Shown here piece by piece: positions 18,167-57,944 of a stretch of DNA of 64,000 nucleotides. Numbering within the stretch: the stretch's first letter is position 1; each line of letters begins with the position of its first letter. Made by a program: the position numbers and the translations under genes. The stretch is from a bacterium. Lineage in GTDB: Bacteria > Krumholzibacteriota > Krumholzibacteriia > LZORAL124-64-63. Location of the stretch: the NCBI GenBank assembly GCA_003353795.1, contig PIVY01000002.1, positions 12,552 to 76,551 on the forward strand, given 5' to 3'. The notes under the pieces are model-generated. The model worked only from the letters and a program-made list of their open reading frames with translations. It made no database searches and was not told the DNA's origin.

Positions 18167-18241
18167 CCCGCGGTCCTTGTCCCCATGGCCGAAAAGCGGG
18201 ATAATCATGGGTGCCACCTCCGCTCTGTCCGGGAGAGACCC

Positions 18242-39887: not shown

Positions 39888-40744
39888 TCATCACCGTGAC
39901 GCGCGAGGATGGCCGCCGCGCGCGCGGCAACGGCCGATGGCGCGTGTCCGGCAAGCTGCTGGAGTGTCGGCAGGGCGTCGTCGGCATGGCCCAGGTCCAG
40001 CTGCACGATGGCCAGGTTCAGCAGCGTGGCTGGCTCCGTGTCGCCCGCCGCGATGGCGTCCTGTAGGAGAGCCTGCGCCCGTTCGAACTCTCCGCCGCGG
40101 TAGGCGACCACGGCGGCTGCCACAAGGACGGTCTCCGCGTCGGGGTAGCGCCGCAGGGCGTCCGTGGCAAAGGTGCGGGCGGTGGAGACCTCGTCCAGGG
40201 CGAGGTAGCCGCCGATCAGCCACATCGCGGCCGAGGGGTCGTTTGCCGAGTCGTGGTAGCGGTCGGCCAGGGCCTGCACGGAGGCCACGAGCGCCGAGTC
40301 TTCGGCGATGCCGCGCAGCGCCGGGCCGGCCTCGGGTTCGCCGACGGCGCCGGGGAAGACCATGGCGCCACCGTGCCGATCGGCCAGGACCCCGGCGATG
40401 GGGCCGACCAGTTCCGGCGCCAGCGGCGGCGGGTCGACGACGGGCGATACGATCAGGAACACCAGCACTGCGGCCATTGGCAGTCCCACGATCGCCGCCC
40501 AGCGCCGACGGGCCACGCGGGGTCTGACGCTGCCGCTCGTGCTGGCCAGAATGGTCGCCACCATCGAGGCCGGCGCGGCGAGCCCCTTCCGGGCGCGGAA
40601 TTCACGGCTCGTCGCCTCCGCCTCGAATACCGCATCCCGGCAATGCCGGCAGGACGCGAGGTGATCGCGTTGCCCTCGGCTCAGGCCGGACTCGCCGTGA
40701 TCGGCCAGCCGCGCCAGGAGTGCCGGGGACAGGTGCACGTTCAC
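39884..40744 (-). CDS. Anti-sigma factor with an N-terminal zinc-finger anti-sigma domain, one TM segment and a C-terminal TPR-like domain.
   Basis: A GTG start at 40744 overlaps the sigma-factor stop as GTGA. 'HLASCRHCRD' is the zinc-finger motif. The TM segment is 'WAAIVGLPMAAVLVFLIVSPVV'. The C-terminus is TPR-like. The Arg/Pro-rich N-terminus in the table ORF is a shadow of the sigma-factor gene. Confidence 0.7.
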   Translation of the reverse strand: MNVHLSPALLARLADHGESGLSRGQRDHLASCRHCRDAVFEAEATSREFRARKGLAAPASMVATILASTSGSVRPRVARRRWAAIVGLPMAAVLVFLIVSPVVDPPPLAPELVGPIAGVLADRHGGAMVFPGAVGEPEAGPALRGIAEDSALVASVQALADRYHDSANDPSAAMWLIGGYLALDEVSTARTFATDALRRYPDAETVLVAAAVVAYRGGEFERAQALLQDAIAAGDTEPATLLNLAIVQLDLGHADDALPTLQQLAGHAPSAVAARAAAILARHGDE

Positions 40745-41640
40745 GACTTTGCCTCCAGCCCGAGGACGAGACGGCCGGCGCTGACGCCGTCGGCGACGCC
40801 GAAGGCCTTGCGGAGCTTCCGCAGGGCCCGTTCGACCACGGTGTAGGCCTGCCGCTGGTTCTTCAGCTTCATTTCCGACGCGATCTGGCGGGCCGACAGG
40901 TTGCGGCCGAAGCGCATGGCCAACGCCTGGCGCTCCTGCTCGTCGAGGCGGGCGAGTTCCGCGCGCATCCTGCTGAGCAAGTGGTCCCGCTCGTCGGTGT
41001 GCGACTCCGCCTCCGGCTCGATCTCGACGGTTCGGGACGAGGCCTCGTAGCGCACATGGTCCACGTACTCGAGCCAGCGACCCGAGGGCACGCCGAGGCG
41101 GTGGGCCTGGCGGTCGAAGCGCAGTCGACGGCGCGCACGGTGGTCCAGCTGTCCGTCCATGTCCGAGAGCAACGACAGGAAGTCTTCGTAGTCGAGCCGT
41201 GCGCCTTCCGATTGCATCCGGCCGTAGACCGCTTTCGACGGCCAGCCCTGGACGAAGAACAGCTCGAAGACCCGCTGGTCCGTGGCCGGACGGCGCAGGA
41301 TCGGTGCGGGCAGGCGCACACGGCCGCGTTCGCGGCGGAGGCGGTCGACGGCCGCGTTGCGGACGATGAGTACCAGCCAGGTCCCGAAGGACGAGCGGCC
41401 GTCGAACTGCTCGAGCTTGCCGCGGAAGAGGCACTCGAATACGTCGGCCACGACGTCGCGGGCGAGGTCGTGATCATGGAGATGTCTATGGGCGACGGAT
41501 AGGGCGAGGCCCGTATAGTCCGTCACGAGGTCGCGCCAGGCCTCCGTGGAGCCAGAGACGGCAGACTGGACCTGGGCGAGATCCTGGTGTCCTTGCAAGA
41601 GTGGTATCGCTCCGGTAGCTGCGGGGTTCGGCGCCGGCAA
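40741..41640 (-). CDS. Sigma-70-family (ECF-like) RNA polymerase sigma factor with a long insertion between regions 2 and 4.
   Basis: Region 2 is 'DVFECLFRGKLEQFDGRSSFGTWLVLIVRNAAVDRLRRER'. Region 4 is 'LDEQERQALAMRFGRNLSARQIASEMKLKNQRQAYTVVERALRKLRK'. At 299 aa it is longer than typical ECF factors. Confidence 0.7.
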   Translation of the reverse strand: MPAPNPAATGAIPLLQGHQDLAQVQSAVSGSTEAWRDLVTDYTGLALSVAHRHLHDHDLARDVVADVFECLFRGKLEQFDGRSSFGTWLVLIVRNAAVDRLRRERGRVRLPAPILRRPATDQRVFELFFVQGWPSKAVYGRMQSEGARLDYEDFLSLLSDMDGQLDHRARRRLRFDRQAHRLGVPSGRWLEYVDHVRYEASSRTVEIEPEAESHTDERDHLLSRMRAELARLDEQERQALAMRFGRNLSARQIASEMKLKNQRQAYTVVERALRKLRKAFGVADGVSAGRLVLGLEAKS

Positions 41641-41816
41641 ACGCCGTGGTTCCGCGACGATTGTAACACATACTCGCCGTGCGTGTAATCCTCGGGACTC
41701 GTCCGTCTATAGCTACCATAGTTGGGGGATGAGGGAGAGACGCCGTCGGGACCGTCCAGCCATCGGGGCTGGGCGGTCCTTTTTGGTATCGGCACGGGAA
41801 TCGATCCTGATTGGTC

Positions 41817-41845
41817 TTGACGGATCGCGCTCGTTGTCGTAATAT
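41817..41845 (+). promoter_or_regulatory. Sigma70-like promoter of the trp-aro supraoperon: TTGACG-N17-TAATAT.
   Basis: TTGACG is at 41817-41822, then a 17-nt spacer, then TAATAT at 41840-41845. This is about 55 nt upstream of the leader peptide start. Confidence 0.6.
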
Positions 41846-41896
41846 TAAACATCAAATTCAAGCGCGCCGAGGTGCGCGCCCCGTCCGGAACCCGGA

Positions 41897-41986
41897 ATGG
41901 ACCCGATGACCCGCATCCGCAGCATCCTGATCGCGACCGACAGCCACCGTTATTGGTGGTCCTGGCGCGATCTGCCTTGCGGATAG
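41897..41986 (+). CDS. trpL: trp leader peptide MDPMTRIRSILIATDSHRYWWSWRDLPCG, with three Trp codons within four codons.
   Basis: In-frame ATGs occur at 41897 and 41906. TGG TGG TCC TGG lies at 41954-41965 and the TAG stop at 41984. The peptide sits between the promoter and trpE, immediately upstream of the terminator hairpin. It is too short to appear in the ORF table. Confidence 0.7.
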   Translation: MDPMTRIRSILIATDSHRYWWSWRDLPCG

Positions 41987-42041
41987 GGGTCGTTCCGGAC
42001 ATCGAGACCAGCTGACAGACAGCCACCGGAACCGAAGCAGA

Positions 42042-42072
42042 CCCGCTATCCGCAAGGAGCGCGGGTTTTTTT
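42042..42072 (+). terminator. Intrinsic terminator (attenuator) in the trp leader, 40 nt upstream of trpE.
   Basis: CCCGCtatCCGCaaggagcGCGGG is followed by TTTTTTT. The segment 42046-42057 (CTATCCGCAAGG) is perfectly complementary to 41975-41986 (CCTTGCGGATAG) at the 3' end of the leader ORF, which is an alternative anti-terminator pairing. Confidence 0.7.
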
Positions 42073-42111
42073 GTGCCCGGCAATGGCGCCGGGCGAACAA
42101 GGAGCGACCCC

Positions 42112-43590
42112 ATGGTCACGCCCGGCCTCTCGGACTTCCTCGATCTCGCACGCGACGGACGCACGGCGCCCCTGCGCCGCCGCATCCCCGCCGACCTGGA
42201 GACGCCGGTCTCTGCGTATCTCAAGCTGGCGCCCCTCGGTGCGGTCTGTCTGCTGGAGAGCGTGGAGCAGGGGATCCAGGTGGGGCGCTACTCGTTCATC
42301 GGCCTGGCGCCGCGATGCGCGGTCACCATCGAGGGCGACGCGGTCACCGTTGAGCGGGGCGGCGTCACCGAAACCAGCGACCTCGATCCCGCCGCGCCCT
42401 TCGCCGCCATCCAGGCCGAGCTCGAGCGGGCGCTGGACCTGGCCACCGGTGATCTGCCCGGCCCTCTCGGCGCGGCCGTGGGCTACCTCGGCTGGGAAAC
42501 CGTCCGCTACTTCGAGCGTGTGCCGCTGCCCACCGAAGGCCACGACGGTCTGCCCGATGCGCGCTTCGTGTTCCCGTCGCAGCTGGTGGTGTTCGACCAC
42601 GTGAAGAGCGAGATCGAGGTGGCGGTGCTGCCGCCGACCGAGCTTGCCGCGGAACCGGGATACGCGGCGGCGCAAGAGCACCTCGACCGTCTGCTCGCCG
42701 CCCTGCGCAGCCCGCTGCCGGCCGGCGCCATGCCCGAGCCGTGCGACCCGCTGGAGCCGGCGTCGCCCGAGATCCCGCGCGAACGTTTCGAGGCCTCCGT
42801 CGAGACCGCTCGCGAGCACATCCTGGCCGGCGACGCCTTCCAGATCGTGCTCTCGCAGCGTCTGCGTGGCCGCACGGCGGCGCATCCGTTCACGGTCTAC
42901 CGCGCGCTGCGCATCCTGAATCCTTCGCCCTACCTCTTCTACCTCGACTTCGGCGACTCCCAGCTCATCGGTTCGTCGCCCGAATCGCTGGTGGCCCTGG
43001 AGGGCGACCGCGCCCAGGTCTGCCCCATCGCCGGCACGCGGCCTCGTGGCGCCACGCCGGCCGAGGACAGCGAACTGGAAGCCGAGCTGCTGGCCAGCGA
43101 GAAGGAGAGGGCCGAACACCTGATGCTGGTGGACCTCGGCCGCAACGACCTCGGTCGCGTCTGTCGGCCGGGGACGGTCCGTCCGTCGAGCTTCCAGCAG
43201 GTGGAGCGCTACAGCCACGTCATGCACCTGGTCTCGCGGGTGGACGGTCGATTGCGGGAAGGTCTGGACGGCTGGGACCTGCTGCGCGCCACCTTCCCCG
43301 CGGGCACTCTCAGCGGCGCGCCGAAGATTCGCGCCATGGAGATCATCGGGGAGCTGGAGGACCGTCGGCGCGGTCCCTACGGCGGCGCGGTGGGCTACTT
43401 CGCGCCCGGCGGCGACCTCGACCTGTGTATCGCCATCCGCACCCTCGTGATGCAGGGCGACCGCTGGTGGGCCCAGGCCGGCGCCGGCATCGTGGCCGAC
43501 AGCGATCCCGCCTTCGAGTACGAGGAGACCCTGCACAAGCTGCAGGCCGTGACCCGCGCGGTGACCCGCGCCGAAGGAGGTCTGGAGTGA
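42112..43590 (+). CDS. trpE: Anthranilate synthase component I.
   Basis: An ATG at 42112 follows GGAG. 'LLESVEQG..GRYSFIG' and the C-terminal chorismate-binding region are typical of TrpE. Confidence 0.9.
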   Translation: MVTPGLSDFLDLARDGRTAPLRRRIPADLETPVSAYLKLAPLGAVCLLESVEQGIQVGRYSFIGLAPRCAVTIEGDAVTVERGGVTETSDLDPAAPFAAIQAELERALDLATGDLPGPLGAAVGYLGWETVRYFERVPLPTEGHDGLPDARFVFPSQLVVFDHVKSEIEVAVLPPTELAAEPGYAAAQEHLDRLLAALRSPLPAGAMPEPCDPLEPASPEIPRERFEASVETAREHILAGDAFQIVLSQRLRGRTAAHPFTVYRALRILNPSPYLFYLDFGDSQLIGSSPESLVALEGDRAQVCPIAGTRPRGATPAEDSELEAELLASEKERAEHLMLVDLGRNDLGRVCRPGTVRPSSFQQVERYSHVMHLVSRVDGRLREGLDGWDLLRATFPAGTLSGAPKIRAMEIIGELEDRRRGPYGGAVGYFAPGGDLDLCIAIRTLVMQGDRWWAQAGAGIVADSDPAFEYEETLHKLQAVTRAVTRAEGGLE

Positions 43591-44180
43591 TGTTGCTCAT
43601 GATCGACAACTACGACAGCTTCACCTACAACGTGGTGCAGGCGCTCGGCGAACTGGGCGCCGAGGTGACCGTGCGGCGCAACGACGCCGTCTCGCCGGAC
43701 GAGGCGGCGGCCCTGGCGCCGGCGGGCCTCATCATCTCGCCGGGCCCCGGCACGCCCGCCGACGCCGGCGTCTCCGCCGCGCTCATCGAGCAGTTTGCCG
43801 GACGCGTTCCGGTGCTCGGCATCTGTCTCGGCCACCAGACCATCGTCGAGGTCTTCGGCGGACGGATCCAGCGGGCCGAGCGGGTGATGCACGGCAAGAC
43901 CAGCCCGGTCTACAACGACGGCCGCACCATCTACTCCGGTCTGGGCAATCCGTTCACGGCCACCCGGTACCACTCGCTCATCGCCGTGGAGGGCGACCTG
44001 CCCGAAGCGCTCGAGATCAGCGCCTACACCGCCGAGGGCGAGATCATGGGCGTGCGCCATCGCCAGCTCGCCATCGAGGGCGTGCAGTTCCACCCCGAAT
44101 CGGTGATGACGCCCGAGGGCGCCCAGCTCCTTGGCAACTGGCTGCAGATCTGCACCGCGACGGGAGCGGTGGCGACATGA
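43590..44180 (+). CDS. trpG: Anthranilate synthase component II (glutamine amidotransferase).
   Basis: An ATGA overlap joins it to the trpE stop, and GGAGG lies upstream. 'MLLMIDNYDSFTYN...GICLGHQ...HPES' are the class-I amidotransferase motifs. The long table ORF is an alternate-frame extension. Confidence 0.9.
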   Translation: MLLMIDNYDSFTYNVVQALGELGAEVTVRRNDAVSPDEAAALAPAGLIISPGPGTPADAGVSAALIEQFAGRVPVLGICLGHQTIVEVFGGRIQRAERVMHGKTSPVYNDGRTIYSGLGNPFTATRYHSLIAVEGDLPEALEISAYTAEGEIMGVRHRQLAIEGVQFHPESVMTPEGAQLLGNWLQICTATGAVAT

Positions 44181-45223
44181 ACGAGAATGTGATGAACGAC
44201 CTCCTCGCCGGACGTAGCCTCGATGCCACCGGCGCCGAGGCCCTCATGGGCGACATCATGACCGGCGCTCTGGACGCGGCTCGTCTCGGCGCCGTGCTGG
44301 CGGCGCTCCAGGTTCGGGGCGTCACGGCCGTCGAGCTCGGCGGCTTCGCCCGGGGCATGCGGGCCCGCGCTGTACCGGTCACCGCCGACTGCATCGACCG
44401 CGCCATCGACACCTGCGGCACCGGCGGCGACGGTCAGGGCACCTTCAACATCTCCACGGCCGCGGCGCTGGTGGCCGCCGCTGCGGGTGCGCCGGTGGCC
44501 AAGCACGGCAATCGCGCGGCCAGTTCCCTGTGCGGATCGGCCGATGTGCTCCAGGCCCTGGGCGTGAATCTGGACCTGGAGCCGGCCGCTCTGGGCCGCC
44601 TGCTCGACGAGGTCGGCATCGCCTTCCTGTTCGCACCGAATCACCACCCGGCCATGCGCCATGCCGTGCCGGTGCGGCGGTCGCTGGGCGTGCGCACGGT
44701 GTTCAACCTGCTGGGGCCGCTGACCAATCCAGCCGGCGTCCGTCGACAACTCCTCGGGGTGTACGCGCCCGAACTGGTGGACCTCATGGCCGGCGCCCTG
44801 CTCGAACTGGGCGCGGTGCGGGCGCTGGTGGTTCACGGCCACGACGGTCAGGACGAACTGGCGCTCACCGGCGAGACGCTGGTGGCCGAGATCGCGGACG
44901 GCAGCGTGACGCGACACACGGTGACGCCCGAGGATGCGGGACTGCAGCGGTGCGCCGCGGCCGACCTGGCCGGCGGTGACGCCGCGGCCAATGCCGACCT
45001 GATGCGCGGCGTGCTGACCGGCGAACCCGGACCGCGTACCGACGCCGTCCTTTTCAACGCGGGAGGCGCGCTCATGGCCGCCGATCTCGCCATCGATTTG
45101 CGCGAGGGCGTGGGTCTCGCGCGCGCGGCCGTGGGCGACGGCCGCGCCGCGACGCTGCTGGCCGATCTGGCCGCGGCTACCCACGACCTCGCGCGTGAAT
45201 CCAACGTGGGAGGCGAATCGTGA
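44177..45223 (+). CDS. trpD: Anthranilate phosphoribosyltransferase.
   Basis: An ATGA overlap joins it to trpG. 'CGTGGDGQGTFNISTAAA...KHGNRA' is the TrpD signature. Confidence 0.9.
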   Translation: MNENVMNDLLAGRSLDATGAEALMGDIMTGALDAARLGAVLAALQVRGVTAVELGGFARGMRARAVPVTADCIDRAIDTCGTGGDGQGTFNISTAAALVAAAAGAPVAKHGNRAASSLCGSADVLQALGVNLDLEPAALGRLLDEVGIAFLFAPNHHPAMRHAVPVRRSLGVRTVFNLLGPLTNPAGVRRQLLGVYAPELVDLMAGALLELGAVRALVVHGHDGQDELALTGETLVAEIADGSVTRHTVTPEDAGLQRCAAADLAGGDAAANADLMRGVLTGEPGPRTDAVLFNAGGALMAADLAIDLREGVGLARAAVGDGRAATLLADLAAATHDLARESNVGGES

Positions 45224-46026
45224 ACGGATTCCTGGAACGCGTCCGGGCCCAGAAGGAGGCCGAGGTCACCGTCGGTCAAGCCGGCCGCAGCCTGGCCGAT
45301 CTGCGCGCGGGGGTCGCCGACATGGCGCCGTGCCGCGATTTCCGCGGGGCGCTCACCGCGGGCAGCGACCGCATCATCGCCGAGGTGAAGCGCCGGTCGC
45401 CCAGCGTGCCGCAGTTCCTGCGACGGGAGCCGCCCGCCGAACTGGCCGCTCTTTACCACGAGGCCGGCGCCGCCGCGCTGTCGCTGGTGACCGACCGGGC
45501 CAATTTCGGCACGGGTCCGGCCGACATCGCACCCATGCGAGCGGCGGCGCCCCTGCCGCTCATCGCCAAGGACTTCATCATCGACCCCTGGCAGGTCCTG
45601 GCCTTGCGCGCCGCGGGCGCCGACGCCGTGCTACTCATCGCTCGATTGCTGGAGCCGAACCAGCTGGCCGACCTCCACGGACTCGCGCACGAGCTGGGTC
45701 TCGCCGCACTGGTGGAATGCCACACGGCGGGCGACCTGCGCGCCGCCCTCGCCGGCGGCGCCGACCTGGTGGGATTCAACAATCGAAACCTCGATACCTT
45801 CGAGGTCTCCCTGGACGTGAGCCGAGCCCTCCTGCCACAGGTGCCCGTGGGTTGCGCAGCCGTGGTGGAAAGCGGGCTGGCCGGACGGGCCGAGGTGGCG
45901 GCGCTGCAGGGCCTGGGCGCCACGGCGTTCCTGGTCGGCGGGTCGCTGCTCCAGTCGGATGATCCGGCCGCGATGCTGCGGGCCCTGCGAGGCGCCGACG
46001 ATTCGCGCCGCGAGGAGGTGTCGTGA
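45220..46026 (+). CDS. trpC: Indole-3-glycerol phosphate synthase.
   Basis: A GTG start gives a GTGA overlap with trpD. 'IIAEVKRRSPS' is the IGPS motif. Confidence 0.88.
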   Translation: MNGFLERVRAQKEAEVTVGQAGRSLADLRAGVADMAPCRDFRGALTAGSDRIIAEVKRRSPSVPQFLRREPPAELAALYHEAGAAALSLVTDRANFGTGPADIAPMRAAAPLPLIAKDFIIDPWQVLALRAAGADAVLLIARLLEPNQLADLHGLAHELGLAALVECHTAGDLRAALAGGADLVGFNNRNLDTFEVSLDVSRALLPQVPVGCAAVVESGLAGRAEVAALQGLGATAFLVGGSLLQSDDPAAMLRALRGADDSRREEVS

Positions 46027-46682
46027 TGCGACCGCTCGTGAAGATCTGCGGCCTGACCCGGCCCGAGGACGCGCGCCTCTGCCGCGACGCCGGCGCCGAT
46101 CTGCTCGGCGTCATCTTCGCCGATAGTCCGCGCCAGGTAACCGTTGGACAGGCCGCCGACATCCGCGCCGCCTGTAGCCACGCGCCCCTGGTCGGCGTGT
46201 TCACCGACGGAACGCCCACGGCCATCGCCGAGGTGGTGGCCGCCGTGGGGCTCGACCTGGTGCAGTTGCACGCCTGCGACGACCCTGCTCGCTGGGAGGC
46301 GGTGGGCCGGGCGTCCGGAGTGTCGGTGCTGCCGGCGGTCACGGCCGACCGTGCCGACGACGCGGTCTCCGCCATGCTCGCGCGGCCCGACCTCTTGCTG
46401 GCGGGCCTGCTCCTCGACCTCCCCAAGCGTACCCGCGACGCCGGATCCGACGGCCGGGTCACATTGATCGAGACGGCGCGGCGTTGCCGCGATCGCGGTA
46501 TCCGCGTCATGCTTGCCGGCGCGCTCGATGCTGCTACCGTGCCGCTCGCCATGCGCGAGGTGAAACCGTTTGGGTTGGACGTTTGCCGCGGCGTGGAATC
46601 GGCGCCCGGTGTGAAGGATCCCGAACTGGTCGCACGATTCCTCGCCGCCGTCGATCATCCGGAGGTGGATCATGTCCACTGA
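46026..46682 (+). CDS. trpF: Phosphoribosylanthranilate isomerase.
   Basis: An ATGA overlap joins it to trpC. '[12 protein letters not shown]' is the PRAI motif. Confidence 0.88.
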
Positions 46683-47850
46683 GATTACTCGCGCCGGCCG
46701 CTTCGGCCCTTTCGGCGGACAGTACGTGCCGGAGACCCTCATGCCGGCGATCACCGAACTGGCCGCCGCTCACATCGAGGCGCTCGCCGACCCGGCGTTC
46801 GCCGCGGAACTCGATGCTCTGCTGGCCGACTTCGCCGGCCGGCCCACCCCGCTGTATCGCGCGCGCCGACTCGAGTCGGTGTTGCCCGGGGAAGCGCAGG
46901 TGTGGCTCAAGCGGGAAGACCTGGTCCACACCGGCGCCCACAAGCTCAACAACTGCCTCGGTCAGGTGCTGCTGGCGCGGCGCATGGGCAAGCGGCGCAT
47001 CATTGCCGAGACCGGCGCCGGCCAGCATGGCGTTGCCACCGCCGCGGTATGCGCCCACTTCGGCCTGGAGTGCACCGTCTACATGGGCGAGACCGACATG
47101 CAGCGGCAGCGTCCCAACGTGCAGCGCATGCGGCTGTTCGGCGCCGAGGTCCGGCCCGCGCTCACCGGCAGCCGCACCCTCAAGGACGCCACCAGCGAGG
47201 CCATCCGCGACTGGGTGGCCTCGGTGGCGACGACCCACTACATCATCGGATCGGTGGTCGGTCCGCATCCGTATCCGTCGCTGGTGGCCGACTTCCAGGC
47301 GGTGATCGGTCGCGAGGCGCGCGAGCAGATCTTCGCCGCCGCCGGCCGCCTTCCCAGCCACGCCCTGGCCTGCATCGGCGGCGGCAGCAATGCCATGGGA
47401 TTGTTCCGCGGCTTCCTCGATGACGGCGACGTCCGGCTGGTCGGCGTGGAGGCCGGCGGCGGTCCCGAGGGGCATGCTGCGACTCTCGGAAAGGGCGATC
47501 CCGGGGTGCTGCACGGCACGCTCTCGCTCCTGCTACAGGATCAGGACGGCCAGGTCGCGCCGGTGCACTCCATTTCCGCCGGCCTCGACTACCCGGGGGT
47601 CGGCCCCCAGCTGGCGCACCTCAAGGACAGCGGCCGGCTCGCCGTGGCCAGCGCCACCGATGCCGAGGCGCTGGACGCGCTGCGGTCGCTCTGCCGGCTC
47701 GAAGGCATCTTGCCGGCCCTGGAAACGGCCCACGCTCTGGCGCACCTGCAGACGCTCGCTGCCGATCCCGATGCCGATCTCATCGTGGTGAACCTTTCCG
47801 GGCGCGGCGACAAGGACCTCGACCACTTGCCCCCGGAGGTGTCGGCATGA
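46672..47850 (+). CDS. trpB: Tryptophan synthase beta chain.
   Basis: An ATG at 46672 follows GGAGG. '[13 protein letters not shown]...HTGAHKLNN' contains the PLP lysine motif. Confidence 0.92.
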
Positions 47851-48650
47851 CCGCTCTCGAACGCGCGTGCCGCGACCGCCGCCAGCGAGGCGAGAAGGCG
47901 CTGGTGCCGTTCCTCACCGCGGGCTTCCCGGACGAGCGCACGTCGCTGGAACTGCTGGCCGCCTGCGCGCGGCGCGGCTGCGAGGTGGTGGAGATCGGCG
48001 TGCCGTTCTCCGACCCCGTGGCCGACGGCCCCGTGATCCAGCAGGCCAGCCAGGCCGCCCTGGCCGGCGGCATGACCCTGCGCCGAGCCCTCGACCTGGT
48101 GACCGAACTGAAGGACGAGGCGGTGCAGCCGGTGATGATGACCTACCTAAATCCGGTGCTGCGCCTGGGTCTGGACGAGTTCGCACGGCGGTCTGCGCGC
48201 GCCGGTTGCGCCGGCGTGATCGTGCCCGACCTGAGCAGCGAGGAAACGGCGCCGCTGCGCGACGCCCTCTCCGGCGAAGGCGTGGCCCTCGTCGACCTGG
48301 TGGCACCGACCACCACCGAGGATCGCATGGCCGCGATCACCGCCACCGCCGGCGGCTTCCTCTACCTGGTGGCGGTGGCTGGCGTGACCGGCACGACCAG
48401 CGCGAATGCTGCCGACCTGCAGTCCTTCACCGACCGCGTCCGCCGGCACACCGACCTGCCGCTCTACGTCGGCTTCGGCATCGACGGCGCCGTGAAGGCC
48501 CGCGAGGCCGTCCAGGCCGCCGACGGCGCCATCGTGGGCAGTGCGCTCATCCGGCGCCTGCTCGACAACCCGGATTCCGGCGGCGTGACAGCCGTCCTCG
48601 ACCTGGTCGACGAAATGCTCGCCGCCCTTTCCCGGAGGACCACCTCATGA
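47847..48650 (+). CDS. trpA: Tryptophan synthase alpha chain.
   Basis: An ATGA overlap joins it to trpB. '[11 protein letters not shown]...[17 protein letters not shown]' is the TrpA signature. Confidence 0.9.
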
Positions 48651-49699
48651 TGATCGTGACCATGCAGCCCGGCGCCTCGGTGGCCCAGATCGGCGCCGTG
48701 TTGCGGCACTGTCAGGAGCGCGACCTGCGACCGGTACCCAGCCACGGAACCGAGCGCACGGTGATCGGCGTCATCCATGCCGATCAACGCACCGACCTGT
48801 CCGCCGTGGCGTCCCTGCCGGGCGTGGACCAGGTCACGCCCGTGTCGGCCGCGCTCCAGCTGGTGAGCCGCGAGTTCCGCGACGAACCCACCGTGGTGCA
48901 CGTCGGCGGCGTGGCCATCGGCGGCCCCGAGTTCGTGGTCATGGCGGGCCCGTGTTCGGTGGAGACCGAGGCGCAAATCAATGCCTGTGCCCGTCAGGTG
49001 GGCGCCTGCGGCGGTCGCATCCTGCGAGGTGGCGCCTACAAGCCGCGCACGTCGCCGTACAGCTTTCAGGGACTGGGCGAGGAGGGGCTGCAACTCTTGA
49101 CCGCGGCCGGCCGCGCGGTGGGATTGCCCACGGTCACCGAGGTCATGCACCCCGATCTGGTGGAGACAGTGGCGAGGTATGCGGATATCCTGCAGATTGG
49201 CGCCCGCAACGTGCAAAACTACGCGTTGTTGTCGGCAGTGGGCAGGGTGCGCAAGCCCGTCCTTCTCAAGCGTGGGCTCATGACCACCATCGAGGAACTG
49301 CTCATGGCGGCCGAGTACATCCTGGCCGGAGGCAATGGACAGGTGATCCTCTGTGAACGCGGCATCCGCACCTTCGAGACGTCCGTGCGCAACACGCTGG
49401 ACGTGTCGGCCGTGCCGGTGATCAAGAGCCAGAGTCACCTGCCGGTGATCCTCGACCCGAGCCACGCTGCCGGCAAGCGCGAGTTCGTGCCGGCGCTGGC
49501 GCTGGCGTCGCTCGCCGCCGGCGCCGACGGCATCATGGTGGAGATGCATCCGGTGCCCGAGGAGGCGTACAGCGACGGTCGGCAGAGTCTCGACTTTCCC
49601 GGCTTCGCGGCGCTCATGGATTCGTTGCGGCCCGTGGGCGCGGCCCTGGGCCGACACGTGGCCGCGGTCCGGCCCGATCTGACGGAGGCGTCTGCATGA
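48647..49699 (+). CDS. aroG: 3-deoxy-7-phosphoheptulonate (DAHP) synthase, type I-beta, with an N-terminal regulatory (ferredoxin/ACT-like) extension.
   Basis: An ATGA overlap joins it to trpA, and GGAGG lies upstream. '[11 protein letters not shown]...[18 protein letters not shown]' is typical of DAHPS I-beta/KDO8PS-like enzymes. An N-terminal domain of about 80 aa precedes the catalytic barrel. The long table ORF is an alternate-frame extension. Confidence 0.85.
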
Positions 49700-51024
49700 G
49701 AGCGGTGGTGCGCGGCGCCCGAGGCGTGAACGGCGAGTTGAGTCTGCCGGGCGACAAGTCCCTGGCTCACCGCGCCCTCCTCTTCGGCGCGCTGGCCGAC
49801 GGCGAGATGCGCGTACGCGGACTGCCACCCGGCGGCGACGTTGCGAGCACGCGGAGCTGTCTCGAAACTCTCGGCGCACGTTTCGAGGACATCCCCGGCG
49901 GCGTGCGCGTGCTGCCGCCCGAGTCATGGCGTACCGGCGAGACGCTCGATTGCGGCAACTCCGGCACCACGACTCGCCTGCTCGCCGGCGTGCTCGCGGG
50001 CCTCGGCCTGGCGACCACCCTTGACGGCGACGCCTCGCTTCGCCGTCGTCCCATGCGCCGCGTGGCCGATCCGTTGCGCCTGCTTGGCGCGTCGGTGACG
50101 ACCCGCGAGGACGGCTGCCTGCCCCTGATAATCGCACCGCCGCGCGACCGGCTCGACGGCATCCGCGTGGAACTGGCCGTGGCCAGCGCACAGGTCAAGA
50201 GCGCGATCCTGCTGGCGGGATTGTTCGCCACCGGTCCGACCACCGTGGTCGAGCCGGCCCTGAGCCGCGACCACACCGAGCGCATGCTCGCGGCCATGGG
50301 TGTCGACGTGCAGCGCGACGGCCTGGCGGTGACCGTTCCCGGGCGACGCGACGACGGTGCCGCTCCCCGCCTTCACGGCCTGACGCTGGACCTGCCGGGC
50401 GACATCTCCACGGCGGCATTCTACCTCGCTGCCGGCGCCATGCGGCCGGGGTCGTCGGTGATTCTCCGGGGTGTGGGGATCAACCCGTCGCGCACCGGAA
50501 TCCTGGATGCCCTTCACGGCATGGGGGCGGCCGTGAAGCTGGCCAACGAACGCACGGCCGCCGGCGAGCCCGTGGCCGATCTGGCCACCGAGAGCTCGCC
50601 CATGCGGGGCATCTCGATCGGCGGCGACCTGGTGCCGCGCCTCATCGACGAGCTTCCCATTCTCGCAGTGGCGGCCACGGCGGCCGATGGCGCCACCGAG
50701 GTACGCGACGCCGCCGAGTTGCGGCACAAGGAATCCGACCGCATCGCGACCACGGTGACCCAGCTCGCACGCCTGGGCGCCGACATCCACGAACGGCCGG
50801 ACGGTTTCACCATTCACGGTCCTTGCCGCTTGCGCGGCGCCGAGGTGGATGCCGGCGGCGATCATCGTCTGGCCATGGCATTGGCCGTGGCGGCGCTGTC
50901 GGCCGAGGGCGAAACGGTGATCTCCGGCGCGGAGGCGGCCTCGGTCTCGCATCCCGACTTCTGGTCGGACGTGGCGCGCCTCGCCGGTCCCGATGCCGTG
51001 CGCCTCGAGGAGGAGAACGCGTGA
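49696..51024 (+). CDS. aroA: 3-phosphoshikimate 1-carboxyvinyltransferase (EPSP synthase).
   Basis: An ATGA overlap joins it to the upstream gene. '[20 protein letters not shown]' is the canonical N-terminus. Confidence 0.9.
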
Positions 51025-51875
51025 CCGTTGGCGGCGCTTCCCGCGTATACGGCCTCATCGGCGACCCCGTGGCGCACAGCCTGTCCCCGCGCCTGATGAA
51101 CGACGCCTTCGCGCGGCTGGGCATCGACGCGGTGTACGTGGCCTGGCGCCTGGCGTCCGACTACGTGGGCTCGGCCGTGGCCGGCCTCGTGACCCTGGGC
51201 GTGGCCGGCGTCAACGTGACCTACCCGCACAAGGCCGCGGTGCTGCCTCACGTGGCGTCCCGCTCCAACGCGGTCGCAACGCTGGGCGCGGCCAATGTAC
51301 TGGCCCTCGACGCCGACGGTTTCCGGGCCGAGAACACCGACGCCGGGGGGACCGCACTGGCCTTGACCGAGTTGCTCGACTGGCCGGTGACCCACCGTCG
51401 CGTGGTGATCCTCGGCGCCGGCGGCGCGGGCCGGGCGGCGGCGCTGGGCCTGCTGGTCGCGGGAGCCGAGCGCGTCGACTTCCTGGTGCGCGACCGTTCG
51501 CGTGCCGAAGCCGGACTTGTCGGCTTGCGCGCGGCTCATGAAGCGGTCGCCGTCCACGTTCTCGACAGCCGCGACGCAGCCGGGTGCCTGGACGCTGCCC
51601 ACCTCGTGGTGCAGGCCACCCCGGTGGGTCTCGACGATCCCGGCGCTGCTTCCCTAATCGACCCGGCACAGGCGCCGAACGCCGCGGGATTCGAACTGGT
51701 CTACGGCGAACGCCCCACCGCGTTCGCCGCCGCCTGGCGCGGCGCCGGTCGACCGTGTCTCGACGGACGCGATCTGCTGGCGGCCCAGGCCCACCTGGCT
51801 CTTCATGTCTGGCTGAACGACGCGCCCGACCTGGCCGACATGCGCCGGGTCATTGCGCCCGAGGAGGTCGCGTGA
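51021..51875 (+). CDS. aroE: Shikimate dehydrogenase.
   Basis: A GTG start gives a GTGA overlap. 'VYGLIGDPVAHSLSP' and 'ILGAGGAGRA' are the SDH motifs. Confidence 0.85.
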   Translation: MTVGGASRVYGLIGDPVAHSLSPRLMNDAFARLGIDAVYVAWRLASDYVGSAVAGLVTLGVAGVNVTYPHKAAVLPHVASRSNAVATLGAANVLALDADGFRAENTDAGGTALALTELLDWPVTHRRVVILGAGGAGRAAALGLLVAGAERVDFLVRDRSRAEAGLVGLRAAHEAVAVHVLDSRDAAGCLDAAHLVVQATPVGLDDPGAASLIDPAQAPNAAGFELVYGERPTAFAAAWRGAGRPCLDGRDLLAAQAHLALHVWLNDAPDLADMRRVIAPEEVA

Positions 51876-53545
51876 CCACGACGAAACGCAACGTGGTGCT
51901 CACCGGATTCATGGGCACCGGCAAGACCGCCGTCGGCCGCGTTCTGGCCGACCTGCTCGGCCGCCCCTTCTGCGATCTGGATGCGGTGATCGAGGAGGCG
52001 GCCGGCTGTCCGGTGGCCGAGATCTTCGCGGCCGAAGGCGAGGACGGTTTCCGACGCCGCGAGCGGGAGGCCGCCGCCGCGGTTGGTGCCCGGCGCGGCC
52101 TGGTGGTCGCCACTGGCGGCGGCACCCTCATCGACCCGGCCAATCGCGAGGCACTCTCCGCCGGCGGCGACCTGGTCCTCCTGACCACTGCGGCGCCCGA
52201 ACTGGCCGACCGCCTCGGCGACGGCGCCGGGCAACGCCCGCTGCTGGCTGGCCACGATGACCTGCGCGCCCGCATCGCTGAACTCCTCGCCGAGCGCGCG
52301 TCCGTCTATGCCGGCTGCGACCACGAATTCGACACGACAGCGCTCGATGCCGACGAGGCCGCCGCCCTGCTGGCTGCGCGCCTGGCCACGCCGTTGACGG
52401 AGATCGACATCCCCGTTCCCGGCGCCGCCGGTCTGCCCGTGCTCGCTGCCCGCGAGCTCACCGGATCGCGCGTGGTCACCGGCCGCGGCACGGTCTGTCG
52501 GCTCGGCGCCGAACTGCGCGACCGCGGTGTCACCGGCCGCGTGGTGCTGGTCATGCCCGAGGTGGTGCGCGATCACTACCTTCCGCGCCTGGTCGCCTCT
52601 CTCGACGCCGCCGAACTGTCGTGGGGCCTGCTGGGAATTCGCGACGGCGACCAGGAGAAGACCTTCGCCCAGGTGGAGGATCTGGTGGACGCCCTGGCCG
52701 GCCTCAGCGCCGATCGTGGCACCTGCGTGGTGGCCGTGGGCGGCGGCGTGACCGGCGACCTGGTGGGCTTCAGCGCCGCGGTCTACATGCGCGGCGCGGC
52801 CCTGGCCATGGTGCCGACCACCCTGCTGGCCCAGGTCGACGCCCACATCGGCGGCAAGACCGGCGTCAACGGTCGCCGCGTCAAGAACCTGGCCGGCTGT
52901 TTCCATCCGCCCATTCTGGTGGTGGCCGACCCCTGCATGCTGGCCACCCTGCCGGACCGTGAGCTGGCCGGCGGCATGGCCGAGGTGGTCAAGTCGGCGC
53001 TCATCGGCGACCCCGCGCTCTTCGACCAGCTCGAGGCGGCGCTTGTCGATCCGGCCGAGAATCGCGACGGCGATCCGCGCCGCGACCCAGAACTGCTCGA
53101 GACCTGTGTGGCGGCTTGCGCCGCCGTGAAGGGCGGCGTGGTCAGTCGCGATCCCTGGGAACTGGGGGAGCGGCGCTTGTTGAACCTGGGCCACACTCTC
53201 GGCCATGCCCTCGAAGCCCAGAGCGCCTACGGTCTGAGCCATGGCGAGGCCGTGTCCATCGGCACCGTGGCGGCCCTGCAAGTGGCCGTGGCGCGCGGCG
53301 CCGCCGAGGCCGATCTCCTCGACCGTACCCGCCGCCTGCTGCAGGCCTGCGGGCTGCCCACCACACCGCCCGAATACGATGCCGCCGACCTCCTCTCGCG
53401 ATTGCATCTGGACAAGAAGCGGCGTGACGGTCGACAGTTCTTCGTGCTGCCACTCGCCGCGGGCGACGTGGTGGTCGTGGACGACGTCGACGATGACGAG
53501 GCCCTCGCGGCCCTGGCCAGGGAGCAAGCGTGCGCATCCTCGTGA
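51872..53545 (+). CDS. aroKB: Bifunctional shikimate kinase / 3-dehydroquinate synthase (AroK-AroB fusion).
   Basis: A GTG start gives a GTGA overlap, and GAGGAGG lies upstream. The N-terminal ~175 aa '[15 protein letters not shown]' is the shikimate-kinase P-loop. The C-terminal ~380 aa '[14 protein letters not shown]...HIGGKTGVN' is DHQ synthase. One uninterrupted 557-codon frame spans both. Confidence 0.85.
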
Positions 53546-53991
53546 TTCACGGACCGAACCTGAACCTCTTGGGCATCCGCGAGCCGGAAGTCTACGGCAA
53601 GACGACCCTGCAGGAGATCAACCGGAGCCTGCGGGCGCGCGGCGAGGAGATCGGCGCGGCCATCTCCGATTTCCAGAGCAACCACGAGGGCGACATCGTC
53701 GACCGCATCCAGGCGGCGGCCCTCGATATTCCTCGGGCCGACGGCATCATCCTCAACCCGGCGGGCTACACCCACACCAGCGTGGCCATCCGCGATGCGC
53801 TCACGGCGGTGAGCCTGCCCACCTGGGAGATCCACATCTCCGATCCGTCGAAACGCGAGAAGTTCCGCCACGTGTCGCTGGTGCGCGACATCTGCGTGGG
53901 CTGCACCGCCGGCCGCGGCTCGGGCGGCTACATCGAGGCACTGGACGGGCTCGTGGCACACTTGAATTCCGGCGGGGAGGCGTCGTCATGA
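53530..53991 (+). CDS. aroQ: Type II 3-dehydroquinate dehydratase.
   Basis: A GTG at 53530 gives '[14 protein letters not shown]...HISD', the type II DHQase signature. It overlaps the 3' end of aroKB by 16 nt. Confidence 0.88.
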
Positions 53992-55073
53992 GTAGCGTCT
54001 TCGGCCGCCTGTTTCGCGTGAGCACTTTCGGCGAGAGCCATGGCGCCGGCCTCGGAGCGGTGGTGGACGGCTGCCCGCCCCGGCTGCCCCTCTCGGTGAC
54101 CGACATCCAGGCCGCTCTCGATCGTCGGCGTCCCGGCCAGAGCGCGCTGACCACGCCGCGCCAGGAGCCTGATCAGGTGGAGATCCTCTCCGGCGTTCAG
54201 GATGGCGCCACCCTGGGAACGCCCATCGGCCTCCTGATCCGCAACACCGACCAGAAGCCGGCCGACTACAAGGACACCGACGAGGTCCCGCGGCCGAGTC
54301 ACGCCGACTACACCTACCAGATGAAGTATGGTATGCGCGCCCGCAGCGGCGGCGGTCGGGCCAGCGCTCGCGAGACGGCAGCCCGGGTCGCAGCCGGCGC
54401 CGTGGCCTCGCAGCTCCTGCGCTTGCGCTGGGGCGTGGAGGTGGTGGCCTGGGTGGACGCGGTGGGCGACGAGGATCCCGCCCTCGTGGATCCCGCGACC
54501 GTCACCCAGGATGCCGTCGATACCAATGCCGTGCGTTGCCCCGACATCGACGCGGCCGATCGCTTCACCGATCTGATCACCAGCGCCCGCGACGCCGGCG
54601 ATTCGGTGGGCGGCGTGGTGGCCTGCGTGGTGCGCGGCTGTCCTGCCGGCTGGGGCGAGCCGGTGTTCGAGAAGGCCGAGGCACGCCTGGCCGGCGCCAT
54701 GCTGTCGCTGCCGGCGAGCAAGGGATTCGAGATCGGCAGCGGATTCGCCGGCACGCGGTTGCGCGGCAGTCAGCACAACGATGCGTTCGTGGCGCGGGCC
54801 GATGGTTCTCTCGGCACGGCTACCAATCGCAGCGGCGGTGTGCAGGGCGGCATCACCAACGGGGAGCCGGTGGTCATCCGGGTGGCGTTCAAGCCGACGT
54901 CGACCATCGCCATGCCGCAGCCGACGGTGGACTACGAGGGCAAGGCGACGGTGCTGGAGGCGAAAGGGCGCCATGATCCCTGCGTGTTGCCGCGGGCGGT
55001 GCCCATCGTGGAGGCGATGGCGGCGCTGGTGATGGCGGATCTGGGGATGTTGCAGGCGGGGCGGGACGACTAG
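53988..55073 (+). CDS. aroC: Chorismate synthase.
   Basis: An ATGA overlap joins it to aroQ, and GGGGAGG lies upstream. 'FGESHG..LG.VVDGCP' and 'GRSSARETA' are chorismate-synthase motifs. The long table ORF is an alternate-frame extension. Confidence 0.9.
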
Positions 55074-55476
55074 GGCCAGCCAGTGGGAAGCCGGGCGGCG
55101 GTCATCCGACCTGCCCCGCGATCTTGTAGAGTACAAAGGTCGAGCACCCCGTCCTGCCGCGCAGTGCCTCGAGCCGCACCTCATCGAGCTGAATCCGGCA
55201 CCGGCGCACGGACTGCAGTTTCCGCCAATTGGGGGCGTCATTGTTGCGGAGCCAGGCCGTTCGGGCTCCGATTCCAGCCTGTGAATCGAAGGCACACTGG
55301 GCAGGGCGCGCACTCGTCGGCAAGCCTGGTCGGCGTCATCCGGTTCATTATGTAACTCATATAACAACAAAGTTTTGCGGTTGCCGTGGGACGTGTCGTT
55401 CACGATGGCACGACCGCTGCTTTGCCGGCTGGTGAAGCAACGGTTCCTCAACCATCGACTCTGTGGAGGCAACACC

Positions 55477-56160
55477 ATGCAATCCTTCGTCGCAGAATTC
55501 TTCCGCTCCGGCGGCCCCCTCATGTGGGTCATCCTGGCGGTCCTCGCGGCGGCCGCCGCAGTCATCGTCGAGCGACTGCACTTCTACCTGGTGGTCTGCC
55601 GCGACGACGCCGACCACCTCGCTACCGGCGCCATCCGCCGGCTCAACGGCGGCGACTTCAAGGGTGCTCTCGCCCAGGTCAGCGGCCGCCGCAGCCCGGC
55701 GGCCGCGATCCTCGGCCAGGCCGTCTCGCGCTTCAATGCCGGCCACTCGCTCACCGAGGTCCGCCACGGTGTCGAGGAAGTGGCCATCCGCGCGGTGCCG
55801 CTCTACGGACGGCGCGTGGGCTACCTTGCCATGCTCGCCAACATCGCCACGTTGACCGGTCTGCTGGGCACCATCTTCGGGTTGCAGAAGAGCTTCAGTT
55901 CGCTGGCCATGGTGGAGGCGGCGGAGAAGGCGTCGGTGCTGGCCGGCGGCATCAGTCAGGCCATGAACACCACCGCCTTCGGCCTCATCGTGGCCATCCC
56001 CTGCCTGGTGGCCTACACCCGGCTGTCCAGCCTGCAGTCGCGCAAGACCGAGGAGTGCGACGCCGCGGCCGTGAAGCTGCTCAACTACCTGGAGGCCCGT
56101 CAGGACGCCGACGATGTCGAGACCGAGACCGTGCGCTCCCTGCAGCGCGCGGCGGTGTGA
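55477..56160 (+). CDS. exbB: MotA/TolQ/ExbB-family proton channel.
   Basis: An ATG at 55477 follows GGAGG. There are three TM segments, and 'LGTIFGL...AMNTTAFGLIVAIP' is typical of the family. Confidence 0.85.
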   Translation: MQSFVAEFFRSGGPLMWVILAVLAAAAAVIVERLHFYLVVCRDDADHLATGAIRRLNGGDFKGALAQVSGRRSPAAAILGQAVSRFNAGHSLTEVRHGVEEVAIRAVPLYGRRVGYLAMLANIATLTGLLGTIFGLQKSFSSLAMVEAAEKASVLAGGISQAMNTTAFGLIVAIPCLVAYTRLSSLQSRKTEECDAAAVKLLNYLEARQDADDVETETVRSLQRAAV

Positions 56161-56165
56161 TCACC

Positions 56166-56672
56166 ATGAGCGCGCGCCAGGCATCGATCCTCTCGCGGCG
56201 GCCGACCGCACTCGGTGATTCCGTCGAGATCGACGTGACCCCCATCATGAACATGTTCATCATCCTGATCCCCTTCCTGGTGAGCATGGCGGTGTTCACC
56301 CACCTCGCGACGCACACGTTCAGCCTGCCCGCCGAGGATGGTCCGAGCCAGGCCCGCACCGCCGACGAGGTGCCGCTGACGGTGGCCGTCACTTCCAGTG
56401 CCGTGGCCGTGGTCTGGGGTGACGTGGAGGTGGCGCGCTTCGTCGTGGCCGCCGACGGCTCTTTCGACACGGTCGCCCTCGAGACCGTGCTGGCTGCCGA
56501 GCGCACGCGCCGCCCCGAAGTGGACCAGGTGGTGGTCGCCGTGGACGACGGCGTGATCTGCGCCGATGTGGTGCGCTGCCTTGATCATTGCAAGGCCGCC
56601 GGATACCGGGACGTGGGGCTGGCTGCCGGCGCCAATCTCGGCTCTTCGCAGGACCCGGAGGTGACGCCGTGA
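56166..56672 (+). CDS. exbD: ExbD/TolR-family biopolymer transport protein (paralogue 1).
   Basis: It has 'IDVTPIMNMFIILIPFLV', a single TM segment and a periplasmic domain. Confidence 0.8.
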   Translation: MSARQASILSRRPTALGDSVEIDVTPIMNMFIILIPFLVSMAVFTHLATHTFSLPAEDGPSQARTADEVPLTVAVTSSAVAVVWGDVEVARFVVAADGSFDTVALETVLAAERTRRPEVDQVVVAVDDGVICADVVRCLDHCKAAGYRDVGLAAGANLGSSQDPEVTP

Positions 56673-57936: not shown

Positions 57937-57944
57937 GCCAGAAC

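Follow-up and report, generated by a model that had tools for sequence, protein, structure and literature searches.

A thirteen-gene trp-aro cluster behind a predicted tryptophan attenuator in a Krumholzibacteriota contig

A stretch of 64,000 nt from contig PIVY01000002.1 (GenBank assembly GCA_003353795.1, GTDB phylum Krumholzibacteriota), hereafter the window, was analysed, in which 13 intact genes follow one another on the + strand at positions 42112-55073. These are trpE-trpG-trpD-trpC-trpF-trpB-trpA, the gene of a DAHP (3-deoxy-7-phosphoheptulonate) synthase (DAHPS), aroA, aroE, an aroK-aroB fusion, aroQ and aroC. Together with a short leader, the 13 cistrons probably constitute a single biosynthetic operon that is attenuated by Trp and translationally coupled, as judged from the sequence and from related loci. 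At its 3′ end, the canonical trpEGDCFBA set, a whole-pathway group of seven genes on one strand, is linked to a block of DAHPS-aroA-aroE-aroKB-aroQ-aroC, and this layout is conserved in a Krumholzibacteriota-like clade, apart from distal genes that are lost or rearranged. The encoded route comprises all seven shikimate steps, from phosphoenolpyruvate (PEP) and erythrose 4-phosphate (E4P) to chorismate, and every step of the Trp branch, the cluster being a compact, self-contained cassette of 13 kb for obtaining tryptophan from central metabolites.

Gene content, junctions and leader

The 13 open reading frames (ORFs) were recovered by NCBIfam and Pfam profile searches at the coordinates given in the initial annotation, whose gene assignments and full coverage from PEP and E4P through chorismate to Trp were confirmed (Table 1). 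All products passed the Pfam gathering scores, while lineage-specific NCBIfam equivalog cut-offs were missed by trpC, trpF, aroE and, narrowly, aroB, as commonly happens with uncultured lineages that branch deeply. Since the product of each gene aligned with its profile almost completely, no pseudogene is present among the 13. For aroE, the putative assignment to the shikimate dehydrogenase step rests on family membership and context. The G+C content of the window is about 68-72% and the six-frame ORF lists are therefore crowded, yet the chain on the + strand at 42112-55073 is unambiguous. No recorded protein was identical to the DAHPS or to the cluster member P0133 in exact-sequence look-ups. 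Moreover, when essentially every remaining predicted gene of the 64 kb was scanned with Pfam, the scans revealed no chorismate mutase, prephenate dehydratase, prephenate dehydrogenase or aromatic aminotransferase, and no second aro or trp gene, so that the Trp-branch-only content previously described for the cluster (without pheA or tyrA) also holds for the whole window.

None of the 12 junctions leaves an intergenic gap. As had been claimed, ten of them are 4-nt ATGA or GTGA overlaps, while trpF and trpB share 11 nt, and aroKB and aroQ share 16 nt. A GGAG or GAGG motif was found 5-17 nt upstream (−17 to −5) of all 13 start codons, compared with a background of 10.8% of the positions in the region, and precedes only 10% of its other ATG or GTG triplets. 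A few junctions offer other in-frame starts, such as ATG 48650 for DAHPS and GTG 53542 for aroQ. Support for the chosen starts comes from these Shine-Dalgarno motifs, from the profile alignments of the products, which begin at residues 1-9, and from matching overlaps in relatives: the 11- and 16-nt overlaps recur in the independent gene calls of the related locus L001 (loci are given L numbers throughout), and the former also in L085. DAHPS may nevertheless start at 48650 instead of 48647, leaving a 1-nt TGATG overlap with trpA, since the alignment with the Thermotoga enzyme begins at the second Met. In each downstream cistron the start codon overlaps the stop of the gene before it, within whose 3′ end the Shine-Dalgarno motif is located; for these reasons translation is probably coupled, and such coupling would probably balance the amounts of the enzymes.

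Upstream of trpE, the only promoter-like site on the + strand in 40500-57500 is the σ70-like one listed in Table 1, and relatives carry TTGACA-17-TA(T/A)GAT at the corresponding place upstream of their leaders. The leader ORF that follows contains three Trp codons, and its stop codon falls in a segment (segment 2) with two alternative partners, one at 41915-41924 in the 5′ part of the leader ORF and the other at 42040-42057. The latter duplex comprises 17 bp (−31 kcal/mol) and uses up the 5′ arm of the terminator, 42040-42057 serving twice, as that arm and as the 3′ arm of the antiterminator; the antiterminator and the terminator hairpin are mutually exclusive. In the fold of 41975-42072 the antiterminator is the minimum free energy structure (−43.3), the leader hairpin reaches −50.5 kcal/mol, and the leader RNA folds much more strongly than its shuffles (z = −5.6). 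This anatomy corresponds to that predicted for textbook ribosome-mediated attenuation. The single upstream Trp attenuator proposed in the initial annotation was thus borne out by the leader ORF, the terminator and the antiterminator, as well as by the conserved leaders described below. On the other hand, regulation of the TRAP type was rejected, as no run of six or more spaced (G/T)AG triplets occurs in 41846-42111.

Table 1. Elements of the predicted operon and its leader in the window, with the Trp-rich parts of leader peptides in related loci
Feature	Position	Strand	Details
σ70-like promoter	41817..41845	+	TTGACG-17-TAATAT; 9/12 match; putative function
Leader peptide ORF (trpL-like)	41906..41986	+	26 codons, MTRIRSILIATDSHRYWWSWRDLPCG*; W at 17, 18, 20
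Regulatory codons	41951..41965	+	UAU-UGG-UGG-UCC-UGG (Tyr-Trp-Trp-Ser-Trp); stalling predicted from the classical attenuation model
Segment 2, antiterminator 5′ arm	41975..41991	+	contains leader stop codon 41984-41986
Intrinsic terminator	42040..42072	+	hairpin GACCCGCUAUCCGCAAGGAGCGCGGG then U7; −15.5 kcal/mol; ends 39 nt before trpE start
trpE, anthranilate synthase component I	42112..43590	+	492 aa; TIGR00564 530.7 bits (cut-off 517.7); AAGGAG 8 nt upstream
trpG, glutamine amidotransferase component II	43587..44180	+	197 aa; TIGR00566 236 bits, PF00117; GTGA overlap with trpE
trpD, anthranilate phosphoribosyltransferase	44177..45223	+	348 aa; TIGR01245 392 bits; ATGA overlap
trpC, indole-3-glycerol-phosphate synthase	45220..46026	+	268 aa; NF001377 224 bits (below the 260 equivalog cut-off); PF00218 206.7 bits, full profile; GTGA overlap
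trpF, phosphoribosylanthranilate isomerase	46023..46682	+	219 aa; PF00697 92.7 bits; GTGA overlap
trpB, tryptophan synthase beta	46672..47850	+	392 aa; TIGR00263 563 bits; 11-nt overlap with trpF
trpA, tryptophan synthase alpha	47847..48650	+	267 aa; TIGR00262 225.6 bits; ATGA overlap
DAHP synthase, type Iβ	48647..49699	+	350 aa; NF006421 470 bits, TIGR01361 384 bits, PF18152 and PF00793; ATGA overlap with trpA
aroA, EPSP synthase	49696..51024	+	442 aa; TIGR01356 366.9 bits; ATGA overlap
aroE, shikimate dehydrogenase family	51021..51875	+	284 aa; TIGR00507 161 bits (below the 200 cut-off), PF08501 76 bits; GTGA overlap
aroK-aroB fusion	51872..53545	+	557 aa; shikimate kinase residues 4-170, 3-dehydroquinate synthase residues 200-546; TIGR01357 304.8 bits (cut-off 305), NF010553 137.6 bits; PF01202, PF01761 and PF24621; GTGA overlap
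aroQ, type II 3-dehydroquinate dehydratase	53530..53991	+	153 aa; NF003805 171.9 bits (cut-off 146), alignment from residue 1; PF01220; 16-nt overlap with aroKB
aroC, chorismate synthase	53988..55073	+	361 aa; NF003793 460 bits; ATGA overlap; TAG stop; last gene
Leader Trp-rich part, L001			TWWWWH
Leader Trp-rich part, L083			NWWYW
Leader Trp-rich part, L084			SWRWW
Leader Trp-rich part, L085			TWWAW
Leader Trp-rich part, L086			WAWRWW
Leader Trp-rich part, L087			RRWWWC
Leader Trp-rich part, L091			SWWYW
Leader Trp-rich part, L003	3365-3469		YWRWY (within RYWRWYG)
Leader Trp-rich part, L029	3085-3189		YYWWWY (within FGVFTYGYYWWWY)
Leader Trp-rich part, L009, L100, L103, L107			WWW
Leader Trp-rich part, L118, L124	1147-1287 (L118), 1153-1293 (L124)		WFYWW (within FAPVFGVWFYWWRS)

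Conservation of the layout and of the leader

The initial annotation had pointed to synteny in related genomes as a check on the layout, which was found to recur, with all 13 genes in three related loci and in shorter versions in others. In particular, L001 (NCBI GCA_964637835.1), whose DAHPS is 77% identical to that of the window, and L002 (Logan SRR15425352) have the same genes, order and overlaps. Locus L087 (DAHPS 63% identical; a contig family present in 55 collection blocks) also has the 13 genes, with aroC placed between aroE and aroKB. Twelve genes were found in L084 and L086, with a convergent aroC just downstream, which in L084 stands beside a gene for a chorismate mutase-prephenate dehydrogenase fusion. 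The cluster of L083 comprises trpEGDCFBA-DAHPS-aroA, followed by convergent aroC and chorismate mutase-prephenate dehydrogenase genes, while L085 and L091 present trpEGDCFBA-DAHPS only, and L089 and L090 run from trp through DAHPS-aroA-aroE up to the contig end. The aroK-aroB fusion is also present in L001, L084, L086 and L087. Overlap compaction was greatest in the high-GC relatives closest to the window, and the DAHPS relatives at 60-64% identity are labelled Krumholzibacteria or Latescibacteria. Overall, the clade keeps the trp-DAHPS core, and the aro genes distal to it are gained, lost or inverted. As a separate observation, a second phosphoribosylanthranilate isomerase gene (117-767, − strand) lies divergently and directly upstream of the trp-DAHPS operon of L085.

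In 16 related loci, trpE is preceded by a short Trp-rich ORF (two to four Trp codons) and then a hairpin-U-tract terminator (Table 1). Homologues of the terminator stem, CCCGCUAUCC…GGAUGGCGGG, are recognisable in L083, L085, L087, L091 and L029, with a compensatory change from G-C to A-U (CCCAC…GUGGG) in L085 and L029, and the terminator stretch of the window was matched by blastn at 90% identity in L083 and L091. This comparison of leaders is stronger evidence for an attenuator than the leader anatomy. Furthermore, mixed Phe, Tyr and Trp codons occur in the leaders of several trp and aro clusters (L029, L118 and L124, L003, L083 and L091), while the trp-only attenuators of L009, L100, L103 and L107 have plain WWW runs. 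These four leaders are related to one another, and the codon comparison, from a small and phylogenetically non-independent sample, is a lead only. The mixed-codon leaders suggest attenuators that may read several aromatic amino acids.

The DAHPS of the window consists of an Iβ barrel (DAHP_synth_1, PF00793, 257 bits) preceded by an N-terminal ferredoxin-like domain (PF18152, 59 bits). It aligns end to end with the Tyr-regulated Thermotoga maritima enzyme (1RZM/3PG9, E 7e−104; 1RZM residues 1-335, the regulatory domain included), and because of this Thermotoga-type ferredoxin-like domain the entry of carbon is probably also controlled by feedback at the enzyme level. At residues ~28-34 (48647-48850), the window, L001, L083-L086, L003 and L004 share a clade motif, [V/R]-P-S-H-G, in place of the H-x-S-x-G present at the same site in T. 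maritima and in most other sequences, which hints at a different allosteric effector. Considering the Tyr codon before the Trp run, the mixed leaders and the clade-specific [V/R]-P-S-H in DAHPS, a tentative and rather doubtful extension would be a rewired control at two levels, in which a multi-aromatic leader sets the transcription of the sole shikimate pathway and the altered allosteric domain of DAHPS sets its flux.

One transcription unit and its alternatives

If the 13 genes form one operon, transcription would begin at the σ70-like promoter near 41817-41845 and would then reach the ribosome-mediated attenuator. With ample charged tRNA-Trp, the ribosome would get to the stop codon in segment 2, the terminator at 42040-42072 would form and most transcripts would end there. 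With a ribosome stalled at Tyr-Trp-Trp-Ser-Trp, segment 2 would be free to pair with 42040-42057, no terminator would form and the polymerase would read all 13 genes. The chorismate needed for Phe, Tyr and folate would come from transcripts that pass the attenuator at a basal rate; in E. coli such read-through is substantial. The regulatory tension is real for this layout, in which that chorismate lies behind a Trp sensor, and it might be resolved by basal read-through, hidden internal promoters, a second aro set or sensing beyond Trp. If these were the sole aro genes of the organism, chorismate for Phe, Tyr, folate and quinones would be tied transcriptionally to Trp sufficiency alone, and the cluster would offer a clean natural test of how a shared pathway is buffered by attenuator read-through and enzyme feedback.

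A σ70 scan was considered appropriate because the leaders of the lineage appear to carry canonical TTGACA/TATAAT promoters. No σ70-like site scoring at least 9/12 was found inside 42112-55073, and a permissive scan at 8/12 yielded two weak sites inside the operon, compared with 1.9 expected from codon shuffles. Neither of them is near 48600, before the DAHPS gene, where internal promoters had been proposed in the initial annotation. In addition, from the leader terminator to 55073 the + strand has no terminator-like site, so that neither an internal terminator nor a promoter signal above chance was found within the unit.

Several points weigh against a single attenuated operon. Promoters located within genes and deviating from the σ70 consensus would escape the scan, and the predicted single mRNA of 13 kb is deduced only from missing gaps and signals. 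No convincing intrinsic terminator was found after aroC (55074-55374), where the fold is no better than that of shuffles, so that no signal marks the 3′ end of the unit and read-through from aroC into exbB is possible. No Rfam family matched the whole window at gathering thresholds or the leader region at E ≤ 1; by sequence the leader does not belong to the enterobacterial Trp-leader family, and since no curated Rfam model matches, the case for the attenuator rests on anatomy and comparison. Regarding feedback, the DAHPS of the window has Val at the position aligned with T. maritima His29, which we take to be a Tyr-contacting residue, while Ser31, whose role is likewise presumed, is conserved. 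Finally, the search for a second aro set covered the 64-kb window, and a separate set or further regulation may be located elsewhere.

Among the alternatives, it is unlikely, though by no means negligible, that the cluster comprises several transcription units, with promoters in coding sequence (e.g. within trpA or trpB) that give the aro half constitutive expression, free it from the Trp attenuator and make the supply of Phe, Tyr, folate and quinones independent of its read-through. Analogies are provided by the weak internal promoter in trpD of the E. coli trp operon and by the several promoters of the Bacillus subtilis aro supraoperon. Moreover, the distal aro genes are mostly absent in L083, L085 and L091, and aroC is on the opposite strand in L083-L086; being separable from the trp block in relatives, these genes can work outside Trp control. 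However, the scans argue against this division (no site at 9/12 or above, and sites at 8/12 at chance level with none near 48600), as does the absence of any intergenic gap.

It is less probable that the cluster is a redundant trp/aro cassette, with a housekeeping aro set, pheA and tyrA elsewhere in the genome. This would dissolve the regulatory paradox, a redundant trp/aro supraoperon has been documented in Nostoc/Anabaena (PMC1173090), and tandem or second DAHPS genes are common elsewhere (L023, L052, L064, L080, L081, L118 and L124). In contrast, no second aro gene occurs in the window, and relatives that drop single aro genes or hold a convergent aroC resemble, by a weak inference, genomes in which single-copy genes enter and leave the operon. 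Still more improbable is an organism that makes little or no Phe and Tyr, by auxotrophy or salvage, and uses the shikimate pathway mainly for Trp, so that no conflict would arise. The missing chorismate mutase, tyrA, pheA and aromatic aminotransferase in the cluster and the 64 kb would fit such a lifestyle, and analogous clusters of Ignavibacteria and Chloroflexota have both chorismate mutase and tyrA within the operon. However, the chorismate mutase-prephenate dehydrogenase fusion beside the clusters of L083 and L084 indicates that the lineage generally makes Tyr, and for a genome of several megabases little can be concluded from what 64 kb lack. Lastly, an assembly chimera of a trp and an aro operon is effectively refuted, as the order and the trpA/DAHPS junction recur in independent NCBI, Logan, JGI and ENA assemblies (L001, L002, L083-L092), the G+C content is uniform across the junction (0.70-0.72) and the junction itself is a 4-nt overlap with a Shine-Dalgarno motif.

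Regarding the surroundings of the cluster, a gene for a σ70-family sigma factor lies divergently upstream (40741-41640, − strand), and 300 nt after aroC an unrelated exbB-exbD-exbD-tonB-receptor cluster follows. Between the sigma-factor gene and the trp promoter, an orphan terminator-like hairpin was found at 41748-41780 (+ strand; 14-bp stem, then UUUUU), with no + strand gene upstream of it, no conserved counterpart of this region in the fetched loci by blastn and no Rfam match; it could be the end of a small RNA or an insulator. An arginine deiminase gene is situated near the cluster both in the window (26043-27563, − strand, ~15 kb upstream) and in L001 (810-2102, − strand, directly upstream). 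The best named relatives of the prolyl-tRNA synthetase of the window (24489-25970) are Candidatus Krumholzibacteria metagenome-assembled genomes (MAGs; 79-83% identity), and in the organism of L001 this synthetase and the trp-aro cluster share one contig. The positions of both genes indicate conserved regional synteny. On the 3′ side, a TonB-dependent-receptor-like ORF of 900 aa (57028-60599, + strand) has its own TonB_C domain (residues 59-133) before the CarboxypepD_reg, Plug and barrel regions, and the TonB gene preceding it also ends in a TonB_C domain, that of the receptor ORF being either an unusual fusion or the product of a mis-set start. Several large predicted secreted proteins with FG-GAP or CarboxypepD_reg repeats and a C-terminal FlgD-Ig-like or Por_Secre_tail domain, among the many proteins of the window that end in such domains, are encoded at 5-2104, 18185-19909, 22422-24338 and 33724-37026; these tails are consistent with a sorting signal like that of the type IX secretion system (T9SS) and with an organism of the Fibrobacteres-Chlorobi-Bacteroidetes (FCB) group. 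Taken with the named relatives of the prolyl-tRNA synthetase and of DAHPS, they indicate that the DNA probably comes from an uncultured, Krumholzibacteriota-like organism of this group.

Comparison with other architectures and known systems

The frequency of the layout was assessed in a GTDB scan with the DAHPS alignment, in which the 80 loci listed, at up to 63% identity and from many phyla, represent a broad sample and not close relatives. Genes of the trp pathway were found upstream on the same strand in 13 of the 80. Among the 35 listed loci having full flanks, six had at least six trp genes upstream, and three of these also had at least four aro genes downstream, all three being MAGs, from Ignavibacteria (L029), Anaerolineae (L069) and Chloroflexia (L055). 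In L029 and L069 the order is trpEGDC(F)BA, type I chorismate mutase, DAHPS, prephenate dehydrogenase and aroA onward. The reverse arrangement, DAHPS-aroB-…-aroA-aroC-trpE-trpG…, was found in L009 (6860-17839) of the GTDB sample and in L100, L103 and L107 of a metagenome scan; there, aroC and trpE are separated by a Trp leader with one or two terminators, a position from which only the trp genes would be attenuated. Furthermore, the metagenome scan revealed a nested form of ~16 kb on one strand (L118 1390-16474 and L124 1396-17607), with the order trpE-trpG-[DAHPS(FL)-aroA-…-aroKB-aroC-aroQ-DAHPS2]-trpD-C-F-B-A, where FL denotes the ferredoxin-like domain, which DAHPS2 does not have.

The joining of trp genes to the common pathway is thus a recurrent theme. 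The initial annotation had called the layout unusual, which was overstated, considering that it is shared in its own clade, that fuller trp-to-aro clusters occur in Ignavibacteria and Chloroflexota, and that aro-to-trp and nested forms exist. The cluster stands out by its Trp-only content, by the placing of trp first, with the whole common pathway behind the attenuator, and by its zero intergenic space. No part of the cluster is new, and its value is comparative rather than mechanistic. The series of forms (trp to aro, aro to trp with an internal attenuator, nested, and versions that have or lack chorismate mutase and tyrA), in which the same Trp attenuator is positioned before everything or before the trp genes only, provides a data set on how the order of operon fusion and the regulatory logic co-evolve.

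With trp operons of the E. coli type, the cluster shares the whole-pathway operon, a leader ORF with tandem Trp codons, the mutually exclusive terminator and antiterminator, a stop codon at or in segment 2, and the start/stop overlaps, trpE/trpD and trpB/trpA being translationally coupled in E. coli. It differs in that trpG and trpD, as well as trpC and trpF, are unfused, six more cistrons that cover the whole shikimate pathway follow trpA, a Tyr codon stands just before the Trp codons, and the leader has no homology to the enterobacterial Trp leader of Rfam.

In a broad sense, the cluster is an aromatic supraoperon as conceived by Jensen and co-workers (PMC1173090), with common-pathway and terminal-branch genes that are co-directional, conserved across genomes and apparently (by prediction) co-transcribed. 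The aro supraoperon of B. subtilis, aroFBH-trpEDCFBA-hisC-tyrA-aroE, likewise has trp and aro genes in one co-directional cluster (PMC1173090). There, however, the trp genes are nested inside the aro genes, the set of aro steps is incomplete, hisC and tyrA form part of the cluster, and regulation relies on TRAP and (G/U)AG repeats, whereas in the window trp comes first and aro last, hisC and tyrA are missing and no run of TRAP repeats is found. The earlier view of the Bacillus supraoperon as the nearest precedent was not borne out, as the clusters of the own clade and of Ignavibacteria and Chloroflexota have the same layout of trp, DAHPS and aro. In Desulfovibrio vulgaris, aroA'-aroB'-aroQ·pheA-aroF-tyrA precedes a seven-gene trp operon (PMC1173090); this supraoperon and loci L009, L100, L103 and L107 share with the window a complete trp operon joined to common-pathway genes and control by attenuation, but their order is reversed, with aro first, while the attenuator of the window precedes everything. 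The redundant supraoperon of Nostoc/Anabaena links trp genes with early common-pathway genes, DAHP synthase among them (PMC1173090), but it is without trpC, covers only the first two common steps, has tyrA and duplicates genes present elsewhere, in contrast to the seven plus seven steps of the window.

A direct link between trpA and DAHP synthase was reported in Sargasso Sea contigs, in which aroG/aroH lies 3-20 bp after trpA and was judged to be co-expressed (Kagan et al. 2008; PMC2395257). In those contigs the DAHP synthase alone was noted, while in the window the remaining six shikimate steps follow. A counterpart of the aro half is presumably the aro operon of T. maritima, which we take to be DAHPS-tyrA-aroA-aroE-aroC-aroK·B-aroQ; the two would have their gene set and the aroK-aroB fusion in common and be almost identical in order, the order in L087 being identical to that of T. 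maritima except for tyrA. The window differs from that operon by lacking tyrA, by having aroC last and by the fusion of the block to a trp operon. Finally, L029, L055 and L069 have trpEGDC(F)BA followed by DAHPS, aroA, aroC, aroB and aroQ on the same strand, and L029 also has a Trp-containing leader peptide, with Phe and Tyr codons in addition, and a terminator homologous to that of the window. These three loci have chorismate mutase before DAHPS, prephenate dehydrogenase after it and intergenic gaps, whereas the cluster of the window is Trp-only and fully overlapped, a tidy variant of the known theme of aromatic supraoperons and attenuated trp operons.

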